A DNA stretch of 64,000 bases, taken from positions 406,559-470,558 of the forward strand of contig CAZSDS010000001.1 of NCBI GenBank assembly GCA_964605735.1, written 5' to 3'. A program made the translations under genes and the position numbers. Below the pieces are notes generated by a model. The model made no database searches. It saw only the letters and a program-made list of their open reading frames with translations, and was not told the DNA's origin. Each line of letters starts with the position of its first letter. Positions within the stretch are counted from its first letter, which is position 1. Origin of the DNA: an uncultured Candidatus Saccharibacteria bacterium (GTDB lineage: Bacteria > Patescibacteriota > Doudnabacteria > UBA920 > O2-02-FULL-48-8). Shown piece by piece: positions 2,286 through 57,697 of this stretch.

Positions 2286-2555
2286 CTACCCCTCCAATCC
2301 TCTCTTGCGTTTTCGGAGTCTCTGGTCTTGTACAATAGCGATGGCGTTTCCTTCCGGGTTCGTGGAATCAAGCTCCAGAAGCTGCCCGTCACTCATCTTA
2401 AGACGCAACCGGCCTGGTTCCCTGTGAGGCAAAAAGTTTTCGCCTCCGAAAAAACGAGCCACGATTTTTCGTGCCCTTAGACTCCCCAGGCTGTAGCCAG
2501 CTGCTGGCAAAACCAGACAAAGCGCTATCAAAAGCCAAAGCGGAACCGTAACCAT
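2286..2555 (-). CDS. small membrane-anchored protein (hypothetical)
   Basis: 89-aa ORF with an N-terminal TM helix and a basic C-terminus. Confidence 0.4.
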   Translation of the reverse strand: MVTVPLWLLIALCLVLPAAGYSLGSLRARKIVARFFGGENFLPHREPGRLRLKMSDGQLLELDSTNPEGNAIAIVQDQRLRKRKRGLEG

Positions 2556-2658
2556 TCAGACCTCCTGAAAAAATGTAAGTGAACGATAGGGAATAATAGC
2601 ATTACCGGGCGTTTAGGTCAACGACACAAAATACCCAGTACTTGCTGAGTGATGAATG

Positions 2659-2682
2659 TTAAAAACCCGCACTAAGCGGGTC
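2659..2682 (-). terminator. rho-independent terminator at the left edge of the AT-rich island
   Basis: Hairpin ACCCGCACTAAGCGGGT (2665-2681), followed on the minus strand by a U-run, directly after the stop of the 2683..3072 gene. Confidence 0.55.
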
Positions 2683-3072
2683 TTAAGTTTTATATTCATC
2701 TTTCCCTAGCACTTCTGCTGGAACAATTTGTGCTTTCACCTTACTTTCACCTAAAATTTTCAACTTGGTTAATCTATGAACGCCGTCTAGAATTACCCAT
2801 CTGTCATTATAATAAGTCACTAATATCGGATAACTGGTATCCGAATTCATTGTACGTTGGTAATGTGTGGCCGAACCCTCAATCTTGTTTATAACATTGT
2901 TCGGTGTAAGGTTCCAATCATCAGTATCATCCTTATCCCAAACCGGCATATCCAAATGCCACTCCAAGTCTTTTACATCAAATTCTTTTACTTCAAGCGG
3001 TAATTGCCTTAACTTAACAGTATCTACATACATGTTAAGCCCGGCATCAGTTATTTCTTTAGGAGCAATCAT
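2683..3072 (-). CDS. ParB-like nuclease domain protein
   Basis: ILDGVHRL motif resembling the ParB/sulfiredoxin-fold DGxHR signature. AT-rich codon usage. 4-nt overlap with the upstream gene. Confidence 0.5.
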   Translation of the reverse strand: MIAPKEITDAGLNMYVDTVKLRQLPLEVKEFDVKDLEWHLDMPVWDKDDTDDWNLTPNNVINKIEGSATHYQRTMNSDTSYPILVTYYNDRWVILDGVHRLTKLKILGESKVKAQIVPAEVLGKDEYKT

Positions 3073-3677
3073 GTATTACGGTTAAAGTTTGCTTTCAATA
3101 AAGAACCTGCATCCACCTGCGACACTAACTTTTCTTCAGATTTCTTTGCTGGCAATATCTCGCGGATTCTTTTCCTGTCAACTTCATTTAAAGTAAAATC
3201 GCCTATATGCAAAATTTTTAAATTAATTGATTTCAATGTCTCATCTATAAACATATCCCTCAAAATTCTCTTTTGAAAACGGTGTGTAAAATCATCAAGC
3301 TCTATGGCTAATAACGGAATCAAATCTGCTTTGCGAAACACTACAAAGTCAATAGTTTTTCTATTTATTTTATTTCTATATGTGTATGTATCCGCAAACT
3401 TGATTGTAGGAGCAACTGTTGCGATGGAACTAACCAAAACCTGTGGAAACACATAATATTCATCCTGTAATAATTTCAAAAGCTTTCGAAAGAAATCCTC
3501 TTCAACTCGAGTCAGAATCCTCTTAGGTACATAGTGTTGAGGATGCAAAATTTGAGCAGGCTGAGCAGGATCATTTTCCTTTTGAACATCGGTAGAATCA
3601 AAATTGTAAGGGGGAATATTCTTGAAAACGAAAGTAAATACAAGGATAAATAGCAATAGAAATAAGATTGCAGACAT
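3069..3677 (-). CDS. DUF2726 domain protein (restriction-endonuclease-like fold) with N-terminal TM anchor
   Basis: N-terminal hydrophobic helix. Motif pattern TRVEEDFFRKL...YVFPQV...IDFVVF is typical of DUF2726. Confidence 0.55.
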   Translation of the reverse strand: MSAILFLLLFILVFTFVFKNIPPYNFDSTDVQKENDPAQPAQILHPQHYVPKRILTRVEEDFFRKLLKLLQDEYYVFPQVLVSSIATVAPTIKFADTYTYRNKINRKTIDFVVFRKADLIPLLAIELDDFTHRFQKRILRDMFIDETLKSINLKILHIGDFTLNEVDRKRIREILPAKKSEEKLVSQVDAGSLLKANFNRNT

Positions 3678-3683
3678 ATTAGA

Positions 3684-5186
3684 TTAAATATCTTCCTTAA
3701 CTTTTACAAAATCATAGCCTTCTTGTTTTGATTTCTCAATGTATTCTTGAATCATATCCAGAGTTTGTTGAGGCGGATAAACTTCGCCTTTCTCAGGGTC
3801 AATTTCATCCCTGCGCAATTCTCTACCCTGGTCAGTCATAGTACCGATATGGAAAATCCTGATCCGGCCATGACCATTGCTGCTTAAAGCTTTTTTAAGC
3901 AGACTTTCGGATTTTAACTTTGTGCTTGGAGGGATGGCAACCACGTCATATGGGTTTCCGTGTATGATCTGAAGATCCATAGCCTGAAACTCACGCAAGC
4001 TATCAGTAGTGCCATGCACTCCTGCAATACGGCCAATCGTCGGCCTTATGCCGCTCACCTGTTCAATCAGCTCAGTTGTTTTCTTCACATCACCTAAATC
4101 CGCGCGCGGACCGATAAAGCGCTTTGCGTATTCTTTTATCCCTGCATTAGGCTTGGCGCCTTCTTGCGCCCATTCATGAACACCAATGTCATGCCCTTCA
4201 TCAATTATTCTTTTGATAATGTGTTCTCGGCCAGGAATAAGTGATCCGACTATAAAAAATGTAGCTTTGGCATTCTGTTCTTTCAGTATGTCTAAAAGTT
4301 TTTCAGTTTCTTCATTCGGACCATCGTCAAAAGTCAGAGCCATGACTTTTTTGCCTTCTTTTTCCAGCTGCTTCATCTTTTCCGGATTCAATTTCCAGTG
4401 GACGTTCTTCCCAGCTACCCATTCCTTGGCCCCGCTTCTTTCCATAGCCCATTCTATTTTTTCAATCAAGCCGCCCAATCCGATCATTTTCAAAGCACGC
4501 AGTTTATCTTGGCTAGGTTCAAACTTGCCTTCGCTTCCCATAACCTGCTTGGCAATTTCCGGGTTCAATCGGAACATGTTCACAATCTGCGTTTGGTTTT
4601 CCTGGGCGGAATGGAGGATGTCTTCCTTGAACTTCTTTGGGTGGAACAGTTCGGAATCTACCCAGCCGTCAGGGATGTCTGCAGAGTGTCTTTCCAGAAA
4701 ACCATTGAGACGTTCCTGGATCTCCAGTAATTTGTTAAGGAAATCCACTGAGAATTCCTGCATGTTCAATTCTTCCAATGCTTTTGCTTTCTGGTTGAAT
4801 TCAGGGTTTGCGAATTTCTGGACTACATAAAAAGACTGGCCTTCCTGGGAGGAGTCAGATGGTTCACCTTCCACGAACATTGCTTTTGGAAAGAGGTCGC
4901 CCAACTCTTCCTGAGCAGTTTCATAGAATTTCTTCAGTCTAACGAATTCCTCGTGGTTCTTGCCACCTTGGTCAAAATATTCTGTGACTGCGTATTCAGG
5001 CTTGTCAAAATCGCGTTCCTGTCCGCCTTCCAGTTCTATAACCGCTGCTGGCTCCCCAAGCTTATGGATATCAAACTCGTGGTTTTCGTGAACTGCTTCC
5101 AAGTCCCTGTTAAATGGATGCAAGTCTTTTGCTTCTTCTGGTATGTATTTCTCTGGGTTCATGTTACTACTGATAATAATTTTCAC
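3684..5186 (-). CDS. polysaccharide deacetylase (NodB homology) domain protein with large acidic N-terminal region and no signal peptide
   Basis: NodB motifs TFDDGP and HEW... with conserved His/Asp in the C-terminal half. N-terminal ~260 aa unassigned. Confidence 0.6.
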   Translation of the reverse strand: MKIIISSNMNPEKYIPEEAKDLHPFNRDLEAVHENHEFDIHKLGEPAAVIELEGGQERDFDKPEYAVTEYFDQGGKNHEEFVRLKKFYETAQEELGDLFPKAMFVEGEPSDSSQEGQSFYVVQKFANPEFNQKAKALEELNMQEFSVDFLNKLLEIQERLNGFLERHSADIPDGWVDSELFHPKKFKEDILHSAQENQTQIVNMFRLNPEIAKQVMGSEGKFEPSQDKLRALKMIGLGGLIEKIEWAMERSGAKEWVAGKNVHWKLNPEKMKQLEKEGKKVMALTFDDGPNEETEKLLDILKEQNAKATFFIVGSLIPGREHIIKRIIDEGHDIGVHEWAQEGAKPNAGIKEYAKRFIGPRADLGDVKKTTELIEQVSGIRPTIGRIAGVHGTTDSLREFQAMDLQIIHGNPYDVVAIPPSTKLKSESLLKKALSSNGHGRIRIFHIGTMTDQGRELRRDEIDPEKGEVYPPQQTLDMIQEYIEKSKQEGYDFVKVKEDI

Positions 5187-5193
5187 ACTCGTA

Positions 5194-6753
5194 CTACTTA
5201 AGTAAGAACCTTCTAAAGTACTCTCTTAACTTTTCATTATGAATATAGACATAGGTTCCATAAATACCACGTGTCAAAAGCGTTTTGTAAATATTGATGA
5301 TATACCTCTTTAGCTCTGCATCATCCCACACAGCTCGCTTTCCATTCGCGTCATAATATTTATCTTTATCAACAATAATTGCCTTTTTAGTTTCATCGTA
5401 ATCAATCTCAGGACCGATTATCACTCCTGCATAATTTAAATCATAACCCTGAATAGTATGAATACAGCCAACTTCATTAACGGCATTCTTGGAATTTACC
5501 CAGTCATGTAAAACACTGTTCCAGAACAGTTTGGTTTCTCCAATTACGATATCTGGAATATTCTTATCTTTTTTTGAGAGCCATGGCCATGCATAACCAG
5601 CAATTACTCGTGAAAGTTTATGCTCAGCATCTTTTTGCTTAATCAACTCTACAAGCTGACCAACACTGTCCAAAATTCTAAAATCATACTGTTGAATTTG
5701 CAGGCCATCAACAGGCAAACCTTCTAAAATGTTATCTATAGCTTTAATGTAGTTATCCCCGCCTTTTATTCTTACCTGAGCCTTTAAACTGTATTCCTTG
5801 CTTTCCAAGGATTTTACGTGTGTCGGAAGAATATCTGTTGGTCTTACAGATTGTTTTTCGTCATAAAATAAGATAATTCTCTTTGCAGAAACTTTAATCC
5901 AATCAAGTTCCGTAGCGTCGCCATTCATCCCCAACAATCTATTTGTTTCATCGAAACTTCTATAGTTTGTTAAATTTCTCCTCTGCCTTAATCTATGCGC
6001 CTCATCAACTATCAAAACATCATATTCCTTTTTCGTGACTTCGTTTGGCCCAATAACCATTGAGGGATTTAACCCTTTAATACTCTGAAAAACTCTCTTT
6101 AATGTTTTTCTTAGGGAGCCCATAGCAACTACCAAGGCAACATTTTTAACTTTTTGCTCAGTGAGTTGTTTTATTAAAAAAGTTGCAAGTATTGTTTTGC
6201 CGGTACCCGGACCTCCATGTATCAAAAAGTACCTATTACCATCTCGCTTCAACTCTTCAAGTATATCTTCTGCAATCTCTAACTGCTCGTTTGTTAAAGT
6301 TTTGTAAGGAGAGTATTTAAATAAATCACTGTTTCTGATTTGTACTAAATCTTTTTCGGCAATATTTGAAAGCTGGAGATCTCGCCAAAGTTGTTCGAAT
6401 TTTCCACTATACTTTTCCTTATCATAGTAGTTATGGTGCTGCAATCCTCCGTTGCTATTTTGTAATAAGTACTTACCGTCAGCGGCCAGATACTCAATTA
6501 ACCAAGCCTCGGCATCTAGTGTTGCTGAAGCATTATATTCTTCATCTGTGATGATATGAATTTTTTCTAAACCTTGTCTATCTGGATTTTTTAAATGATC
6601 CCTAGTTCTTTTATATGCATTTAAAGATTGGCCTACATACAACTCTTTATTGTTTTCAATAATATAAACAACTGGCCAATTATTGCCAAAGTTAAAGTGC
6701 TTTATTTTTTCAGCGCCTTCTTTACTAAAGGAGTAAGTCTTGAATACTGCCAT
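5194..6753 (-). CDS. GIY-YIG nuclease domain fused to DUF2075-type P-loop NTPase (Schlafen/helicase-like ATPase)
   Basis: N-terminal VVYIIEN...LYVGQS...YKRTRDH (GIY-YIG). Walker A HGGPGTGKT and Walker B/DEAH VLIVDEAHRL. Length and C-terminal region typical of DUF2075. Confidence 0.6.
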   Translation of the reverse strand: MAVFKTYSFSKEGAEKIKHFNFGNNWPVVYIIENNKELYVGQSLNAYKRTRDHLKNPDRQGLEKIHIITDEEYNASATLDAEAWLIEYLAADGKYLLQNSNGGLQHHNYYDKEKYSGKFEQLWRDLQLSNIAEKDLVQIRNSDLFKYSPYKTLTNEQLEIAEDILEELKRDGNRYFLIHGGPGTGKTILATFLIKQLTEQKVKNVALVVAMGSLRKTLKRVFQSIKGLNPSMVIGPNEVTKKEYDVLIVDEAHRLRQRRNLTNYRSFDETNRLLGMNGDATELDWIKVSAKRIILFYDEKQSVRPTDILPTHVKSLESKEYSLKAQVRIKGGDNYIKAIDNILEGLPVDGLQIQQYDFRILDSVGQLVELIKQKDAEHKLSRVIAGYAWPWLSKKDKNIPDIVIGETKLFWNSVLHDWVNSKNAVNEVGCIHTIQGYDLNYAGVIIGPEIDYDETKKAIIVDKDKYYDANGKRAVWDDAELKRYIINIYKTLLTRGIYGTYVYIHNEKLREYFRRFLLK

Positions 6754-6759
6754 GCCAGA

Positions 6760-7107
6760 TTAGAGTTGAGTGTATTTTGTATGTTTGCCTTTTGCTTTAT
6801 CTACAGGATACTTCTTTTCGTTTATTTCCATCTTCTTAAGAAAAGCTTGTTTCAGATCAATATCCAGGTCATGTGAAATAAGTAAAATCCAATATAGAGT
6901 ATCCACGACTTCTTCAGCTATATCTTCTTTGTGTTCAACTATATATTTCTCGATTTCTTCTTTACTTTTCCATTGGAAATGTTCAGCGACCTCAGCCGCC
7001 TCAAGCATCAAAGAAAGAGCCAAGTCTTTAGGATTATGGAACTGTTTCCAATCCCTCTCGTCTCTGTATTTAATTATTCGGTCTGTTAATTCCTCGATAT
7101 CAGACAT
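6760..7107 (-). CDS. MazG-like nucleoside triphosphate pyrophosphohydrolase (all-alpha NTP-PPase)
   Basis: 115-aa ORF with LALSLMLEAAEVAEHFQW...EEVVDTLYWIL pattern of the MazG/dCTP-pyrophosphatase family. 6-nt gap to the downstream ATPase gene. Confidence 0.65.
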   Translation of the reverse strand: MSDIEELTDRIIKYRDERDWKQFHNPKDLALSLMLEAAEVAEHFQWKSKEEIEKYIVEHKEDIAEEVVDTLYWILLISHDLDIDLKQAFLKKMEINEKKYPVDKAKGKHTKYTQL

Positions 7108-7131
7108 TGCTTTTATGGTTAATACTCTATA

Positions 7132-7160
7132 ACTATGCTAACGTTTGCTTTTTTTGTCAA
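7132..7160 (-). promoter_or_regulatory. Putative sigma70 promoter for the MazG / GIY-YIG-DUF2075 operon
   Basis: Minus-strand -35 TTGACA, 17-nt spacer, -10 CATAGT, ~25 nt upstream of the MazG-like start. Confidence 0.4.
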
Positions 7161-7173
7161 AAAAACGCCACTT

Positions 7174-7530
7174 TTATATTATTGGATCAAATTTCTTGAG
7201 TATGTAATGAGTAATACCAGCAAATATAATTATAATGACTGCACCCAACCATTGATTAAGACTACCTGTCTGTATTGCTACCATTAGTTGAAATATTCCA
7301 GTAACTGCCTGGATCAATGCAAACGCTGCAGCAATTTTTGAAAATCTATTCGCGCTCTCACTTTCTTTCTTCAGATTACTACTCAAGGATTTCATTTCTG
7401 ATAATAATTTTTTATTTACACACCTTGAAAGTTCCTCAGAAGCGAGAGCTGCGTGGACAGGCCCCACCTTATTAATCCATTTATGTAACTGCATCTCACT
7501 GGCTTTTTCAAGTTCTGGTGAAAAATTCAT
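7174..7530 (-). CDS. small 2-TM membrane protein (possible effector/holin-like partner, hypothetical)
   Basis: 118-aa ORF with a soluble helical N-terminus and two C-terminal TM helices. Starts 2 nt after the stop of the upstream Excalibur ORF. Confidence 0.4.
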   Translation of the reverse strand: MNFSPELEKASEMQLHKWINKVGPVHAALASEELSRCVNKKLLSEMKSLSSNLKKESESANRFSKIAAAFALIQAVTGIFQLMVAIQTGSLNQWLGAVIIIIFAGITHYILKKFDPII

Positions 7531-7531
7531 A

Positions 7532-8041
7532 TCATTCGCAAGCTAATCCGTCTTTATCACTATCAAGTTTATACTTATCTACACCAACAACTGTTGCTGG
7601 GCCCCTAAAGTACGCTGGCCCATCTCCACTACCGCCAGCACAATCCACATCACTGGCTATCGGCACACATCCACCAAAATAATTTGGATCACAACTTGAT
7701 GAAGTTGGTGCTGGAGTAGGTGCAGTTTTCTGTGCGGGCGTTGGATTTGGTAATGGAGTCGGCGTAACTTGCGGCTTTGTTGTCGTTGTTGGATTAGGGG
7801 TTGGCTGTAGAGTTGGTGTTGGCGTGACTTCCTTCAACTCAACTTCGCTTGAAGGAGTTGAAATTTCTGGCGCAGTGTTTTGTGGGGCATCTTGGACACT
7901 TGGCAGATCCAGTTGGTTGTTAACTGTTGTTGTCGATGACTACGGCTCGCTAATGCTAGCCAAACCAATAAAACCGGCAATAATTATGCTTGGGATAATA
8001 CCTTTTCTTTTGAACCATCTTTTTGGTGTAGATATTTCCAT
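7532..8041 (-). pseudogene. Secreted Pro/Thr-rich Excalibur (calcium-binding) domain protein interrupted by an in-frame TAG
   Basis: ATG at 8041-8039 opens a signal-peptide-like 33-aa ORF (MEISTPKRWFKRKGIIPSIIIAGFIGLASISEP), then TAG. The same frame continues for 34 codons into the listed TTG-start ORF 7532..7837, which ends in DCAGGSGDGP...DSDKDGLACE (Excalibur motif). TAG is a normal stop in this window (pnp and ileS end in TAG). Confidence 0.45.
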
Positions 8042-9802
8042 TTAACTATAAATTTTCTCAATTTTTGATTTTAATGGAAGTGGTATCTCGAATGCCTGAG
8101 CCGAAACAAGATTTAATGCTAAATAAGGCTTGTGTTTATCACTCGCTTGAGTAATACCTATTTCCTCGTCCAAGTCATTTATGAAAATTACACTATCCCC
8201 TATACTTCTATTTACCGTGGATTCGATTTTTGCCGATGATTGATCTGCACTCTGCAAAGCCTCAGATGATTTGCCAGACTGATGATCCTTATCATACACA
8301 GCTAAATATGAAATCTTAAACTTATTCAGTAAATGCACATACACTTGGATACTGTCTTTACTGCCGCAGTCTATTAAAGTGTAATCGTACCTAAAAATAC
8401 CTATTTTTTTCGCTAGATACGGTATAACTGTTTTTTCAGTAGCGCCCTCTAACAAAATTACTTTTTTAGCGAAAAATAGCTCACTGCGATCTGGATTGAG
8501 CCAGTATGTCATATTGAAATTTTTTTTATCATCACTCAAGGTAAATAATTCTTCTGAACATTGAAGAGTTTTACTTCCTTCCTCAAGATTCTTTTTATAA
8601 ACAATGACTATTGACTTATACGCTTCTAAATCTAAGAAAGAACTTGAGTGCGTTGACAATACTACTTGCGTTCCAGACTCGGATAGACTCTGCAAGGATG
8701 AGAACAGCTCTCGTTGAGCCTGAGGATGTAAATACAATTCAGGCTCTTCATAAAAAAGATAAATGGATTTCGAAGCAGAGCGACTTAATGTCTGTTCCTC
8801 TGAGATCTCAGTACTTGCTTTAACCCAAGCTTTAATGAGTGCAAAAATTAACGAACGCTGCAGTCCATTACCCTTCCTATCAACATCTGTGGGTACGCCG
8901 TCATCAACCCAAACAGAAGTCCCTAGACGCATAACCTCATCAATATCAGGCGGTGTTATTTCAATACTAATTTTTGTATCCCACTGCCTAAGTTCATCCT
9001 CAAGCAAACTCTCTAATTTGCTAATTTCGGCTGGTCTATTTTGGTTTTGAGCACCTGTAGAGACGGTTTTGTTTAAATTCTGTGCCAGTTCAGCAATTCT
9101 CTTTTTCGCATCCTTATAAGCATCGTTATTTTTTGACATCTCATTAATAACATTGGAAAAAAGCTGACTAAAAATTGATTTACTTTTTATGTTGAATTCA
9201 TCTCCGACGTTCTTTACCGCAGGCACAAAAAATACCTGACCAAATATACCTTGTGCGACAGATTTTAGGCCTAGAAAGTGAGAATGCTCCAATTGATATA
9301 AAAAGTTAACGGAACCAGTATGATCTTCAATATACTTTCTTTGGGCTTGTATTACCATCTCTTTTGTAACTCTTCCTTCATGGGGAATATATTGCAGAAG
9401 AGGTGTGCCTTGTATAACATCTCTGTTATTCAACTGGCCTGCACTCTCCTCTCGTAACCAACTATCTGAAGGTATCTGACAGTAGCCGTGATACTCAGGT
9501 GGATCACCCTTAATAACCTGCTTTCTTACAGTTATCGCTCCTTCACTGGTCAGATACTTTTTAAATTGATTTTTGTCATGATCATCCAGATCACAAAAAG
9601 TGACCTCGACATGCAACTCTTCTGATCCTTTATTAAAGTCCATTTCAGAAATTGAAATATACCCAAAAAAGAATAGCAGGGCAGTCAAAATATTTGACTT
9701 ACCATGATTATTTTGACCAATAAAAATCATCAAAGATTGAAAATCGACTTCACAATCCTTAATGGAGCGCCAGTTATGAATTCTTAGCTTCGAAATTCTC
9801 AA
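8042..9802 (-). CDS. OLD-family ATP-dependent endonuclease (N-terminal ABC/AAA15 ATPase plus C-terminal TOPRIM), class-1-like (no helicase partner)
   Basis: Start MRISKLRIHNWRSIKD, Walker A GQNNHGKSNIL, C-terminal TOPRIM VILLEGATEKTVIPYL. 586 aa, the same size as phage P2 Old. TTG start overlapping the upstream stop (TTGA). Confidence 0.8.
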   Translation of the reverse strand: MRISKLRIHNWRSIKDCEVDFQSLMIFIGQNNHGKSNILTALLFFFGYISISEMDFNKGSEELHVEVTFCDLDDHDKNQFKKYLTSEGAITVRKQVIKGDPPEYHGYCQIPSDSWLREESAGQLNNRDVIQGTPLLQYIPHEGRVTKEMVIQAQRKYIEDHTGSVNFLYQLEHSHFLGLKSVAQGIFGQVFFVPAVKNVGDEFNIKSKSIFSQLFSNVINEMSKNNDAYKDAKKRIAELAQNLNKTVSTGAQNQNRPAEISKLESLLEDELRQWDTKISIEITPPDIDEVMRLGTSVWVDDGVPTDVDRKGNGLQRSLIFALIKAWVKASTEISEEQTLSRSASKSIYLFYEEPELYLHPQAQRELFSSLQSLSESGTQVVLSTHSSSFLDLEAYKSIVIVYKKNLEEGSKTLQCSEELFTLSDDKKNFNMTYWLNPDRSELFFAKKVILLEGATEKTVIPYLAKKIGIFRYDYTLIDCGSKDSIQVYVHLLNKFKISYLAVYDKDHQSGKSSEALQSADQSSAKIESTVNRSIGDSVIFINDLDEEIGITQASDKHKPYLALNLVSAQAFEIPLPLKSKIEKIYS

Positions 9803-10005
9803 GCAATTTTAGTGTAGGAATAAGTATTTTTGACGTGATTTGCGAAAAAGCTACCCTTAGATCCAGCTGACATAAGTTGACTAAATACACCCTCCGGAAC
9901 TCCGTGATACTGGTATGTGCCACCATTCACAAATTCGACCTCTAATACACTAGCTTCGTACCCAATAGATCTAATATCACTTGAATTTACAGTTTGTCTC
10001 AACAT
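9799..10005 (-). CDS. KTSC domain protein
   Basis: 68-aa ORF with YQYHGVPEGVFSQLMSAGSKGSFFANHVKNTYSY, matching the KTSC (lysyl-tRNA-synthetase C-terminal-like) domain signature. Stop TGA overlaps the TTG start of the OLD gene. Confidence 0.65.
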   Translation of the reverse strand: MLRQTVNSSDIRSIGYEASVLEVEFVNGGTYQYHGVPEGVFSQLMSAGSKGSFFANHVKNTYSYTKIA

Positions 10006-54207: not shown

Positions 54208-57200
54208 CTATTTTTCAATGGCTAATTTAATAACCTTGCCGTCGAGGCTTACTGGTTCTTCGTTCTCGAGATTTTTGGCTGAAACTTCCTTAACAAAGGT
54301 CTTTTTACGGTCAAAAAGATCCATGGCTTTTGCCAGTTCTTCATCAGAAGTATCATAAGCCAAATTAACCATTTCGCCAACCTTTAAGCCGGACTTTTTG
54401 CGCATATCCTGGACAATTCTTTCAAGGTTGCGGGCCAAGCCTTCCAGCTTCAATTCAGGGCTGATTTCCGTATCCAGATACAGATGCTGGACATACCTGG
54501 TACCGGCATATGTTTTCACAAGCTCACCGGATTGGCTGACAAGCTTATCGTCAACCAACTTTACGTTTACTTCTGAAGCCAGAATTGCGGCCAGTTCGGG
54601 ACTCAATTGCACATCAGCTTTTGTCTGAACTGCCAGTCTTGATAATGGCTGGCGGATAGGCAAACCCAATTCTTTTCTCGCGTTTAAGGCAACACTGGCC
54701 GCTTCCCGGACAGCTTCCATTGCCGCGAGCAGTTCAGTTTCATCTGCGGACAAAGTCCTGGTCTCCGGCCATACTGCCAAGTGCACAGACTCTGCGTCAT
54801 TTTCCTGCCTCAGAACCTGCCAGATGTTTTCTGCCAGAAACGGCGTAAACGGCGCCATAAGCAAGCTCAGGGTCTTCAATACCTTATACAGGGTTTGATA
54901 AACTGCCGGACCTTTGCGTTCGCGGGAGCGGCGGACATACCAGGTGGAAAGCTCATTGATGAAATCTTCAATGCTCCTGGACGCTCGGAATGCGTCAAAA
55001 TTATCCAAGCTTTCAGTCACTGAGTTAACCAGCTCCTGCGTCTTTGCCAAGATCCACTGATCCAACACATCCAAAGCATCAGTTTCTTTCTCTGACGGTG
55101 TCCATTTATCAAAACTCGAGTAAGTCACAAAGAAGCTGAGCACGTTCCACAATGTCAGGAAATTCTTGCGTACAATCAGATCAAGGTCGCGCTCTGCAAA
55201 CAATTTGGAATCGCCGGGCTGGTTGATCGAATACATATACCAGCGCACTGCATCCACTCCCTGCTTGTTCATCGGTTCCCAAGGATCAATGATGTTGCCT
55301 TTGGACTTGCTCATCTTTAAACCTTTTTCGTCAAGCAAGTGCCCCAGACAGATGACGTGCTTGTATGCAGGGCCTTTGCCTAAGATGGTTGAAATGGCCA
55401 GCAGAGTATAAAACCAACCCCGAGTCTGGTCAATTGCCTCTGAAATGAAATCAGCCGGAAACTGCTGGCGGGCCAGGTTGGCATTTTCAAACGGGGCGTG
55501 CCATTGGGCGTACGGCATGGCGCCTGAATCAAACCACACATCCAAGACAGACGGCACGCGCTTGGAATCATTGCCACAATAAGGACATGGCAAAACCACT
55601 TCGTCAATGTAAGGGCGATGCAAATCAGTAAGGCCTAGCTCTATTTGGGTAAACTCCCCCACCTGCGGATAATGGTTGGCAACATCATAGTACTGGTTCA
55701 TCAACCAAATGACATCTCCGTGCGTCACCAGCAAAATCTTCTTGCCGTTGTGCTTGGAATTCAGTTCGCTGACAAAATCAAGCATGCGGGTCTGAAGATC
55801 CATATAGGATTCCCCGCCCTCTGGCGCCTCCTGCCATCTTCTCTGCACTGGCCAGTCTTTATGGTACTCTTCCAATTTTTTGCCGTTGTACACGCCAGTA
55901 TTGAATTCCCTTAATCGCGGGTCAAATTGGACTTCAACTCCCAAAATCTTTCCTGCAATTTCAGCAGTTTGCTTGGTTCTCACCAAATCAGAGGCAAAAA
56001 TCATATCCACACCACCTAATGCTTTGATTTTTTCACCCAGTTCATGAGCTTGTTTTTCACCTAGTTCGGTCAGTGGCATTGGCGTGGTTTCCGGATAATG
56101 CATATGGATTCCCTGCACCACGTTTTGCGCCTCACCGTGCCGGGCAATATAAAAGTGGTTTTTGTTCAGCTTCAGCTCATCAACACTGCCGATTATCTGG
56201 TGTTTTTTGCAGTGTTCGCATTTCCAAATCGGCAGAGGTGTGCCCCAGTATCTTTCGCGGGAAATTGCCCAATCCTTGATCTCTGCCAGCCAATTTCCAA
56301 AACGGCCATATTTAATGTGGCTTGGATTCCAGGTAATTTGTTCATTGTTTTTGATCAGGTCTTCGCGCAGCTGGCTCATTTTTATAAACCAGGATTCGCG
56401 GGCGTAATACAACAGCGGGGTGTCACAGCGCCAGCAATGCGGATATTCGTGCTCATACTTCTCTTTTCTTGCGAAATTTCCGTGCGACTTCAGGTGGCCG
56501 AAAATTTTGCCTTCCGTGGCTTCGTCCTTTACATACATTCCGGCCAGTTCTTTGACTTCAGGCACAAATAATCCGGCATCATTAACCGTATGGATTTTCG
56601 GCAGGCCGACTTTTTCTCCCAACTGGTAATCGTCCTCACCATAAACCACTGCTGTGTGCACTACTCCGGTTCCGTCTGTGGTTGTGACAAAGTCAGCGTC
56701 ATAGATTTTATATGACTGCGGCGTTTTCAGGAATTCCACTTCAAACAGCGGTTCGTATTCCAGGCCAAGCAGGTCTTTGCCCTTCATGCTGGCAACCACC
56801 TCCGGGTTTTCACCTGCAGCTTCCAATCTTTCCTTGGCTAAAATCCAAAACTCATCTCCAACTTTGACTTTTGCGTATTCAATGTCTTTGCCTACGGCCA
56901 AGGCCACGTTCCCCGGCAAGGTCCACGGCGTGGTGGTCCAGGACAGGATGTAGGTATTTTCCTGGTTTTTTAGTTTAAATTTTACGTAAACCGAGTTGTC
57001 TTTTACGGTTTTGTATCCTTGAGCCACCTCATGCGAAGAAAGCGCGGTGCCGCAGCGAGTGCAGTAAGGCAGAACTTTGTGGCCGAGATAAACCAGATCT
57101 TTGTCCCAAGCCTGCTTGAGAATATTCCAGATGGATTCAATGTACTTGTTGTGGTAAGTGATGTACGGGTTTTTCATGTCCACCCAGTAACCCATGCGGT

Positions 57201-57624
57201 GGGTCAGCTTTTCCCAATCATCCTTGTATTCCCAGACAGACTGTTTGCACAAACGGTTGAATTCAATGATTGACTCGCGGACAGTCGGGCGGATGGATTC
57301 AATCTGTTTTTTTCCGGAAATCTGGAGTTTTTTTTCAATTTGAAGCTCAACAGGCAAACCGTGCGTATCCCAGCCAGCTTTTCTGTTTACAAATCTGCCA
57401 CGCATTGTCTGGTAACGAGGAATCAGATCCTTGAAGGCACGGGCTTCCACGTGGTGCAGTGCTGGTTTGGCGTTGGCAGTTGGAGGGCCTTCGAAAAAGA
57501 CAAAAGGTTTGCCATCTTTGGTTTGTTCCAGGCTTTTTTCAAAAATTTTGTTGTCTTCCCAGAACTTAAGGACGTTTTCTTCCATCTCCGGAAAGTTGGG
57601 TTTTGGATTAAATTCTTTGTTCAT
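54208..57624 (-). CDS. ileS: isoleucine--tRNA ligase carrying an inserted histidine-phosphatase (phosphoglycerate-mutase-like) domain
   Basis: HIGH-type (PTANAKPALHH) and KMSKS motifs, CP1 editing domain, type-2-like C-terminus. Start taken at MNKEFNPKP. Listed ORF extends to 57678. Confidence 0.9.
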   Translation of the reverse strand: MNKEFNPKPNFPEMEENVLKFWEDNKIFEKSLEQTKDGKPFVFFEGPPTANAKPALHHVEARAFKDLIPRYQTMRGRFVNRKAGWDTHGLPVELQIEKKLQISGKKQIESIRPTVRESIIEFNRLCKQSVWEYKDDWEKLTHRMGYWVDMKNPYITYHNKYIESIWNILKQAWDKDLVYLGHKVLPYCTRCGTALSSHEVAQGYKTVKDNSVYVKFKLKNQENTYILSWTTTPWTLPGNVALAVGKDIEYAKVKVGDEFWILAKERLEAAGENPEVVASMKGKDLLGLEYEPLFEVEFLKTPQSYKIYDADFVTTTDGTGVVHTAVVYGEDDYQLGEKVGLPKIHTVNDAGLFVPEVKELAGMYVKDEATEGKIFGHLKSHGNFARKEKYEHEYPHCWRCDTPLLYYARESWFIKMSQLREDLIKNNEQITWNPSHIKYGRFGNWLAEIKDWAISRERYWGTPLPIWKCEHCKKHQIIGSVDELKLNKNHFYIARHGEAQNVVQGIHMHYPETTPMPLTELGEKQAHELGEKIKALGGVDMIFASDLVRTKQTAEIAGKILGVEVQFDPRLREFNTGVYNGKKLEEYHKDWPVQRRWQEAPEGGESYMDLQTRMLDFVSELNSKHNGKKILLVTHGDVIWLMNQYYDVANHYPQVGEFTQIELGLTDLHRPYIDEVVLPCPYCGNDSKRVPSVLDVWFDSGAMPYAQWHAPFENANLARQQFPADFISEAIDQTRGWFYTLLAISTILGKGPAYKHVICLGHLLDEKGLKMSKSKGNIIDPWEPMNKQGVDAVRWYMYSINQPGDSKLFAERDLDLIVRKNFLTLWNVLSFFVTYSSFDKWTPSEKETDALDVLDQWILAKTQELVNSVTESLDNFDAFRASRSIEDFINELSTWYVRRSRERKGPAVYQTLYKVLKTLSLLMAPFTPFLAENIWQVLRQENDAESVHLAVWPETRTLSADETELLAAMEAVREAASVALNARKELGLPIRQPLSRLAVQTKADVQLSPELAAILASEVNVKLVDDKLVSQSGELVKTYAGTRYVQHLYLDTEISPELKLEGLARNLERIVQDMRKKSGLKVGEMVNLAYDTSDEELAKAMDLFDRKKTFVKEVSAKNLENEEPVSLDGKVIKLAIEK
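55618..56157 (-). other. Histidine phosphatase superfamily (branch 1, PGM/SixA-like) domain inserted inside IleRS between the WKCEHC and CPYCGN zinc-knuckle halves
   Basis: IARHGEAQ (RHGE catalytic motif) ... LTELGEKQAHELG ... FASDLVRTKQTAEI ... DPRLREFNTG ... PEGGESYMDL ... ILLVTHGDVIWLM: all hallmark blocks of the histidine phosphatase fold, in-frame within ileS. Confidence 0.7.
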
Positions 57625-57640
57625 ACTTCCCTTATCTTTG

Positions 57641-57697
57641 GGGAGCAGGTCGTTCCGCTCGGCGCACGCTAATCGCAAGCACCTCGCCGGAACGAAC
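57641..57697 (-). promoter_or_regulatory. Long imperfect hairpin (~21 bp stem) immediately upstream of the ileS RBS
   Basis: GGGAGCAGGTCGTTCCGCTCGGCG ... CGCCGGAACGAACCTGCTCCC. Ends about 10 nt before AAGGGAAGT-ATG. Confidence 0.5.

Follow-up and report, generated by a model that had tools for sequence, protein, structure and literature searches.

A MazG-like pyrophosphatase gene paired with a GIY-YIG-DUF2075 nuclease-helicase gene in Patescibacteria: a possible restriction-like defence cassette

A nuclease domain placed N-terminally to a DUF2075 superfamily 1B (SF1B) helicase is an already known kind of defence protein. Nhi of S. epidermidis (SERP2475; Bari et al. 2022) and Nhi-like (Millman et al. 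2022) are validated single-gene defences built in this way, and in both of them the nuclease and the helicase activities are required for phage defence. Since phages escaped from Nhi-like by inactivation of their own DNA methylase (10.1101/2022.08.27.505566), the latter is taken to be methylation-dependent. Fusions of DUF2075 with GIY-YIG have been mentioned in a work that also noted NTPases of the DUF2075 type in the neighbourhood of DUF3427-DUF3883 type IV candidates (PMC6765204), and homologues of MutT have been found to adjoin those of SauUSI (PMC7641849). Here we analysed a stretch of 64,000 nucleotides (nt), hereafter the window, from an uncultured Candidatus Saccharibacteria bacterium (GTDB lineage Patescibacteriota; Doudnabacteria; assembly GCA_964605735.1, contig CAZSDS010000001.1, positions 406,559 to 470,558), in which a GIY-YIG-DUF2075 protein is encoded directly after a MazG-like pyrophosphatase, and we found that these two genes are strictly co-inherited in non-syntenic, island-like contexts.

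The pair consists of two open reading frames (ORFs) arranged in tandem on the minus strand of the window, with MazG first. The MazG-like gene, of 115 amino acids (aa), occupies positions 6760-7107, and the gene of the 519-aa nuclease-helicase, the presumed effector, occupies 5194-6753; only 6 nt (6754-6759, minus strand) separate the stop codon of MazG from the ATG that opens the second gene, a distance suggesting that both may be translationally coupled. A first-pass annotation of the window, made from its letters, had proposed a 115-aa MazG-type pyrophosphohydrolase and, 6 nt beyond it, a 519-aa fusion of GIY-YIG with a Walker A/DEAH ATPase of the DUF2075 type, and had read both as an operon with its own promoter. 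The distance is exactly as described, the two proteins were identified as such by the analyses presented below, and the operon reading gains from an adjacency that is conserved across phyla. The promoter was not borne out. The motif, TTGACA-17-CATAGT, is present on the minus strand at 7160..7132, within the 66-nt gap 5' of the MazG gene, and is compatible with a promoter, yet a motif scan counted 8 sites of this type in 5000-7700 versus 9.1 +/- 3.3 in shuffled sequences; in DNA so rich in AT the site has thus no statistical weight and is no evidence for a promoter. No terminator of note was seen.

In the 519-aa protein, Pfam assigned residues 175-505 (positions 5239-6231, minus strand) to PF09848 (SLFN-g3_helicase, the former DUF2075, of Schlafen group 3) with an E value of 1.6e-64. 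The corresponding motifs could be read from the DNA, with a Walker A sequence, GGPGTGKT, encoded at 6216..6193 and a Walker B sequence, DEAH, at 6006..5995, and residues G180, G183, T184, G185, K186, D250, E251, H253 and R254 were invariant in 85 homologues. A Foldseek search with an AlphaFold model of the full-length protein (pLDDT 88.3) retrieved RecD2, Upf1, RecD, Dna2 and Dda on top and SLFN14 in a lower position, that is, helicases only and nothing on the N-terminus. The protein is, then, a member of the DUF2075 SF1B helicases.

The N-terminal domain (approximately aa 1-100; 6454-6753, minus strand) carries the motif VVYIIE..LYVGQS, encoded at 6672..6625. Its GIY-YIG score in Pfam was 21.1 bits, just below the cut-off of 22.6 that two homologues passed (L177, 29.0 bits; L176, 23.3 bits), and a profile search of the N-terminus against the PDB yielded UvrC with an E value of only 0.4, even if the register of the Tyr, Tyr and Arg residues agreed with the UvrC alignment. 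Because of these values, the fold of the N-terminus was tested. The top match was 2lwf, an N-terminal domain from a glutaredoxin of plants, which we take to have the GIY-YIG fold, and the alpha/beta fold of GIY-YIG was recovered. Residues Y30, Y39, G41, R49, H53, E82 and N99 were invariant in the 85 homologues, and they include the catalytic Tyr, Tyr, Arg, Glu and Asn (Y30, Y39, R49, E82 and N99). Judged from the modelled fold and the catalytic residues, the 519-aa protein belongs to the GIY-YIG superfamily, and both its nuclease and its ATPase sites look intact and are predicted to be active. A profile of the N-terminal domain found 494 clusters (50% identity, E value up to 1e-10) among 1.84 billion representatives; as the full-length members of those clusters have the lengths typical of the helicase fusion, the family is sizeable but specific.

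Among the close homologues, a share that varies with the set from about a third to a half is longer (around 670 aa) and bears a C-terminal S24 peptidase domain of the LexA/UmuD type (P0003, P0006, P0012 and P0018 among them). In this domain the GDSM motif and the Lys are present in 26 of 26 sequences and the Cys-Gly site in most, features suggesting that self-cleavage triggered by RecA may serve these homologues as a switch. The protein of the window ends at aa 519 and has no S24 domain.

Comparison with the systems described so far places the 519-aa protein close to Nhi and Nhi-like but outside them. The PADLOC models of Nhi and AbiO match the first half of the helicase of the window protein (E value around 1e-19). 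Membership in these two was rejected, for the Nhi match spans aa 142-329 only, equivalent to model positions 173-330 of 470 or about a third, and the nuclease differs; membership in Nhi-like, judged from its published description, was discarded on account of the nuclease class and of the conserved MazG partner. In fact, Nhi and Nhi-like share with the window protein the plan of a single polypeptide in which the nuclease is N-terminal to the DUF2075 SF1B helicase, but their nuclease is of the PD-(D/E)XK class whereas that of the window is GIY-YIG, and they are described as single-gene systems whereas the window protein has an essentially obligate MazG partner. Two further PADLOC entries gave partial matches, PDC-S14 models to the GIY-YIG region (aa 5-116, E value 1.5e-6) and PDC-S41 to the C-terminal end (aa 417-505), and both are unvalidated single-gene candidates without MazG. 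The first-pass annotation knew of no name for the pairing and fusion. As to MazG this stands, since no description of it as a partner of DUF2075/GIY-YIG nucleases was found in the literature searched, an incomplete collection, and both the obligate partner and its use across nuclease families appear undescribed; the combination of a nuclease with DUF2075, on the other hand, is that of Nhi and Nhi-like, and the GIY-YIG version had been mentioned before.

The 115-aa protein scored 43.6 bits with PF12643 (MazG-like), above the gathering threshold of 27. The closest solved structures were those of dCTP pyrophosphatase 1 (DCTPP1)/RS21-C6 (2a3q, 6sqw; E value 1e-19) and the archaeal pyrophosphatase 4qgp. 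On these sequence comparisons, the protein can be classed as an all-alpha NTP pyrophosphatase of the DCTPP1/RS21-C6 branch of the MazG-like enzymes. The metal ligands E36, E39, E42, E66 and D69 and the base-stacking residues W20 and W46 align with E63, E66, E69, E95, D98, W47 and W73 of mouse RS21-C6, and all of them are kept in 97-100% of the 79 partner MazG proteins of related loci (see below), as are K92, K99, Y100, K111 and Y112. The ExxE...ExxD metal motif is likewise present, as E36-A-A-E39 (with E42 after two further residues) and E66-V-V-D69, and is 99-100% conserved in the same partners. The enzyme seems therefore catalytically intact and is predicted to be an active deoxynucleoside triphosphate (dNTP) pyrophosphatase. 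It has no sensor or regulatory domain, and its clade is better conserved than the proteins that it accompanies, with identities of up to 82% versus 63% or less for the nuclease-helicase. As to its characterized homologues, the available part of one study has DCTPP1 affecting the metabolism of 5-methyl-dCTP (PMC4491611), and that of another describes a mycobacterial MazG that removes 5-OH-dCTP (PMC3855555). DCTPP1/RS21-C6 has the same metal-binding and base-stacking residues as the MazG of the window, but DCTPP1 and the house-cleaning MazG enzymes are stand-alone housekeeping proteins, whereas the clade of the window accompanies nuclease genes in mobile islands.

We examined the conservation of the pair in the relatives of the 519-aa protein. 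A scan of 185,579 genomes, one per species, yielded 460 of them, and the best 80 loci, with 51-61% identity to the nuclease-helicase and mostly from metagenome-assembled genomes (MAGs) of Patescibacteria, were analysed. A MazG-like ORF (E values of 1e-23 to 1e-53) was present directly 5' and on the same strand in 79 of these 80 loci, mostly with a gap of 0-5 nt, and in the remaining one the contig end left only some 245 nt upstream. Such an adjacency is far beyond chance, and the co-occurrence in public genomes that had been suggested as a check was thus found.

The pairing extends to distant relatives. In megaplasmids of the Bacillus cereus group, at 37% identity, a gene annotated as nucleotide pyrophosphohydrolase adjoins one annotated as DUF2075 domain-containing protein, and comparison of coordinates showed MazG to be adjacent in 25 of the best 30 plasmid hits. 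Four more carried a tandem-duplicated version consisting of MazG, a GIY-YIG protein with a KAP NTPase, a decayed MazG fragment and GIY-YIG plus DUF2075. A contig from a human-gut metagenome (36% identity) has MazG upstream, and one from IMG/VR (28% identity) has it directly downstream, i.e. in reversed order. The persistence of the pair through sequence divergence, change of taxon and change of gene order argues strongly that it is a functional unit. In a plasmid of Bacillus sp. PGP15 with the duplicated order (L176, 2677-7303), the GIY-YIG protein with a KAP P-loop NTPase has 686 aa and the MazG fragment lies at 4510-4671. The same type of GIY-YIG has there been joined to another NTPase by tandem duplication, and genes for an HNH protein and a Nudix pyrophosphohydrolase are located just upstream of the array.

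A reverse test was carried out with MazG as the anchor. Close relatives of the MazG of the window (60-82% identity) were collected by six look-ups of encoding contigs plus a metagenome scan of the best 80 loci (60-74% identity). A DUF2075 gene was immediately 3' of MazG in 43 of the 72 evaluable loci, and in 3 more it came after one intervening gene, which in two of them was a RadC-like JAB gene. Clustering on the N-terminus divided the downstream partners into five classes, and every class begins between -4 and +8 nt from the MazG stop codon. The first one (33 loci) is made of proteins of about 620 aa in which a conserved R-x-D...E-L-K-Q-W N-terminal domain precedes DUF2075. This N-terminus matches the PADLOC candidate PDC-S41 (E value 3e-22) and, since a profile search of the PDB produced only spurious matches to repeat proteins, its assignment as PD-(D/E)XK-like rests on the D..ELK motif and the PDC-S41 match. 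The domain plan of these MazG partners is that of Nhi-like. The second class (18 loci) corresponds to GIY-YIG-DUF2075 proteins like that of the window, and the third one (7 loci) to proteins of about 365 aa with a putative EVE-like N-terminus and a D..ExK C-terminus. In the fourth (6 loci), the N-terminus is fused to HNH or NOV_C/DUF3883 and has a match (E value 2.6e-6) in 6p0f, the N-terminal part of McrB from an archaeon and presumably a YTH-like m6A reader, and the fifth (5 loci) contains RadC/JAB proteins.

The partners without DUF2075 that combine an EVE-like domain with a PD-(D/E)XK-like one, or an McrB-N/YTH-like domain with HNH or NOV_C, are probable uncharacterized type IV restriction enzymes (examples are L101:4912-6015, L169:1817-2809, L140:5327-6391 and L084:4348-5400). 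The described type IV enzymes (EVE/PUA-HNH, McrB-N fusions, SauUSI) are related to our case in that the same MazG clade leads genes for McrB-N/YTH- or EVE-like reader-nucleases, but no reader domain is recognizable in the 519-aa protein of the window. Two other arrangements are worth describing. In a Paenibacillus plasmid (L082, 4606-7665), a gene for MrcB_N, the N-terminal reader domain of McrB (E value 4e-59), plus HNH is directly 5' of GIY-YIG-DUF2075, in the usual place of MazG, and in a human-gut contig (MT836409; L083, 3459-8713) a 1033-aa SauUSI-like protein with PLD nuclease, helicase and DUF3427 is followed by MazG and then by GIY-YIG-DUF2075. These results show that several families of nucleases share the highly conserved MazG gene as their leader, and that some of these families have type IV architecture.

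The stretch of the window that contains the pair and other nuclease-type genes (approximately 2500-10000) stands out in the composition profile, with a GC content of 34-41% versus 46-51% on both sides, and this points to the recent acquisition of an island that is now flanked by housekeeping genes. Beyond it lie genes for ArgRS, IleRS, a Clp ATPase and UvrD (Pfam) and for PNPase (recognized from its sequence). The island also holds an OLD-family nuclease with ATPase and TOPRIM domains (8042-9802, minus strand; PADLOC Old, E value 1e-76). The flanks of the 80 loci are not conserved, the commonest other ORF family occurring in at most 13 of them; inspection of representatives by eye, without a profile scan, showed YgjP-type, Fic/RhuM, PemK-like, NYN, Mrr-like and HNH genes as recurrent neighbours, and some of the MazG-anchored loci had Pfam hits to YgjP-like and Fic, either precomputed or from a scan. 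Viral relatives were rare, with 1 in the 2.9 million viral contigs of IMG/VR versus 460 in the 185,579 species genomes. Two explanations of the locus were discarded at this point: a phage origin, given that single IMG/VR relative and only 4 records, weak or unverified ones, from a phage collection, and a housekeeping synteny, given that the flanks differ among loci. The low-GC island, the OLD neighbour, the lack of synteny in the flanks and the scarcity of viral relatives agree with the defence-like character that the first-pass annotation had attributed to the pair, and none of the contrary outcomes that it had named (unconfirmed domains, lack of co-occurrence, a housekeeping MazG in syntenic position) was observed.

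We tentatively propose, with a confidence that stops just short of the midpoint, that the pair is a mobile two-gene restriction-like defence cassette in which MazG polices modified dNTPs, most likely as a means of self-protection. By analogy, it is best read as belonging to the Nhi/Nhi-like kind, with GIY-YIG as the nuclease and with a conserved pyrophosphatase partner. The SF1B DUF2075 motor would use ATP to load on, or translocate along, foreign DNA, and the N-terminal GIY-YIG domain would cut it, as in the working plan of Nhi/Nhi-like with the nuclease module swapped. MazG would hydrolyse base-modified dNTPs (5-methyl- or 5-hydroxymethyl-dCTP, for example) to the monophosphate, and modified nucleotides that were salvaged, or freed from degraded foreign DNA, would thereby be kept out of the chromosome of the host; a chromosome with modified bases would, if MazG were missing, become a target of the modification-sensitive nuclease. 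As a second effect, phages needing modified dNTPs would be starved. We assign this role to MazG because it is the most conserved component, lacks a sensor, is encoded first and has partners that apparently read modified bases, and the fact that the same clade precedes reader-nuclease fusions of the type IV kind points to the policing of modified dNTPs rather than to bulk depletion. We infer in this way both the anti-phage function of the pair and the modification dependence of its GIY-YIG-DUF2075 enzyme, as well as the substrate of MazG and the direction of the benefit (self-protection versus attack). In a wider sense, a DCTPP1-type pyrophosphatase could be a portable 'metabolic immunity' gene that lets hosts carry safely such modification-sensing type IV-like nucleases as the DUF2075 helicases with GIY-YIG or PD-(D/E)XK and the fusions of a reader with HNH or PD-(D/E)XK, an extension that we consider possible but doubtful.

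Several observations weigh against the proposal of a self-protecting restriction cassette. With regard to MazG, no PADLOC model matched the 115-aa protein, its substrate specificity is not readable from the sequence, and a weak match to dUTPase_2 (Pfam, E value 0.002) indicates that other substrates are possible. As to the nuclease-helicase, the Pfam scan detected no domain that reads modified bases, and the presence of S24 in so many homologues would suit a role in DNA damage or repair equally well. One MazG relative is followed, after an 80-nt gap, by an ordinary methyltransferase and PD-(D/E)XK pair, a misfit with self-protection from modification-dependent cutting, and both this case and the many fusions to S24 are compatible with other readings. 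Among the partner classes, the EVE-like assignment of the ~365-aa proteins is weak (E value 0.45 to PH1033), and the N-terminus of the ~620-aa proteins is called PD-(D/E)XK-like by eye and from PDC-S41. Finally, most of the related loci are MAGs of one superphylum and their counts are not fully independent.

The alternative that survives best, although we hold it to be unlikely, is that MazG is itself an anti-phage effector that destroys the modified dNTPs of phages (hydroxymethyl-dCTP, hydroxymethyl-dUTP or dUTP) or depletes dCTP in bulk, while the nuclease-helicase degrades the phage DNA in parallel. Depletion of dNTPs by dCTP deaminase or dGTPase is an established principle of defence and counts in favour of this alternative, and so do the DCTPP1-type sequence with an intact active site and the co-inheritance with nucleases, which fits any cooperative role. 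However, in an enzyme of 115 aa without a sensor, bulk depletion would be constitutive and costly, and if modified dNTPs were destroyed, the reader-nuclease partners of the same clade would lose their substrate. Moreover, a tightly coupled gene order with MazG first is the usual one for protective partners, and none of the PADLOC depletion models matched. The depletion defences likewise set a dNTP-acting enzyme in a defence context, but by PADLOC they show no homology to the MazG of the window, which is without a sensor and always paired with a nuclease. The first-pass annotation had spoken of depletion of the nucleotide pool; considering the type IV-kind fusions that follow the same clade, this is not the best-supported role for MazG.

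A housekeeping role in DNA repair, in which a pool sanitizer would work with a repair nuclease-helicase, often under a LexA-like SOS switch, and would have no dedicated anti-phage function, is in our opinion improbable. Such a role would account for the S24 peptidase at the C-terminus of about a third to a half of the homologues, for the resemblance of the helicase fold to Dna2 and RecD2 and for an apparent Y-family polymerase (noted by eye, without a scan) in the vicinity of 4 loci, and MazG and DCTPP1 are, in the available parts of the literature, classic house-cleaning enzymes. It agrees poorly with the patchy distribution, the non-syntenic flanks, the low-GC island of the window and the carriage by plasmids, and with neighbours that comprise OLD, restriction-modification, Fic, toxin-antitoxin-like and type IV genes. 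In addition, the protein of the window has no S24 domain, and MazG proteins of this clade also accompany reader-nuclease fusions with HNH or PD-(D/E)XK.

It has also to be considered that the pair might be an addiction or selfish module, with the nuclease-helicase as the toxin and MazG as an enzymatic antidote, so that loss of the module would kill the cell and phage defence would be a by-product. The protective gene comes first and is tightly coupled, the module moves between genomes and is carried by plasmids, a decayed MazG fragment is found between duplicated nuclease genes in Bacillus, and GIY-YIG domains are common in selfish elements according to the available part of PMC1564403. We nevertheless judge it very improbable, since MazG retains a fully conserved active site for a small molecule and is not evolving like a binding antitoxin, and since one distant locus has the two genes in the opposite order. 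A Pfam scan gave no match to MazE or MazF (PemK) among the neighbours of MazG in the window, which are a 118-aa membrane-like protein and the nuclease-helicase, and the context is therefore not that of mazEFG. On the other hand, addiction overlaps with the restriction-like reading with self-protection rather than excluding it. Lastly, the idea that a housekeeping MazG merely happens to lie beside an unrelated helicase gene, for which one could invoke the frequency of MazG-like genes in bacteria and the non-significant promoter motif, can be dismissed, because the pair occurs in 79 of 80 loci of several phyla with differing flanks and persists at 28-37% identity and despite a change of order.

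The other genes of the low-GC island, all of them on the minus strand, were also inspected. Just 5' of the pair there are a 118-aa gene (7174-7530) whose product has a hydrophobic C-terminus and a weak CorA-like match, and a 101-aa gene (7532-7837) whose product is rich in Pro and Thr and ends in an Excalibur-like motif. On the other side, a 500-aa gene (3684-5186) begins 7 nt past the stop codon of the nuclease-helicase and may be co-transcribed with the pair; some 270 N-terminal residues of its product have no family match and are followed by a polysaccharide deacetylase domain, and its GC content, about 45%, is above that of the pair. The OLD gene is preceded by a 68-aa KTSC-domain gene (9799-10005) whose stop codon overlaps the OLD start by 4 nt, and these may constitute a second two-gene unit in the island. 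A further small coupled pair is located at the island edge, where the gene of a 202-aa DUF2726 protein (3069-3677) overlaps by 4 nt with a 129-aa gene (2683-3072) that has a weak SbnI match, taken as ParB/Srx-like, and a match to PHROG 17560. Away from the island, at 54208-57678 (minus strand), a 1156-aa class I tRNA synthetase (IleRS-like) contains a His_Phos_1 domain inserted at aa 510-662, inside its catalytic domain.

The association of one MazG clade with at least four kinds of nuclease suggests an unrecognized accessory function in restriction. How a host that carries nuclease-DUF2075 or type IV enzymes stays safe during the salvage of modified nucleotides has rarely been considered, and the pair described here offers a directly testable two-gene system. 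Its components have human homologues, DCTPP1 in the case of the MazG clade and the Schlafen helicase domain in that of the helicase. The module is not called by current catalogues (PADLOC 2.0) and is common in the poorly studied Patescibacteria. If the wider reading of MazG as a portable 'metabolic immunity' gene is true, it would represent a principle of self/non-self discrimination for restriction that acts on the nucleotide pool and not on the DNA, and such a principle would matter most in bacteria that scavenge nucleotides, such as the Patescibacteria.

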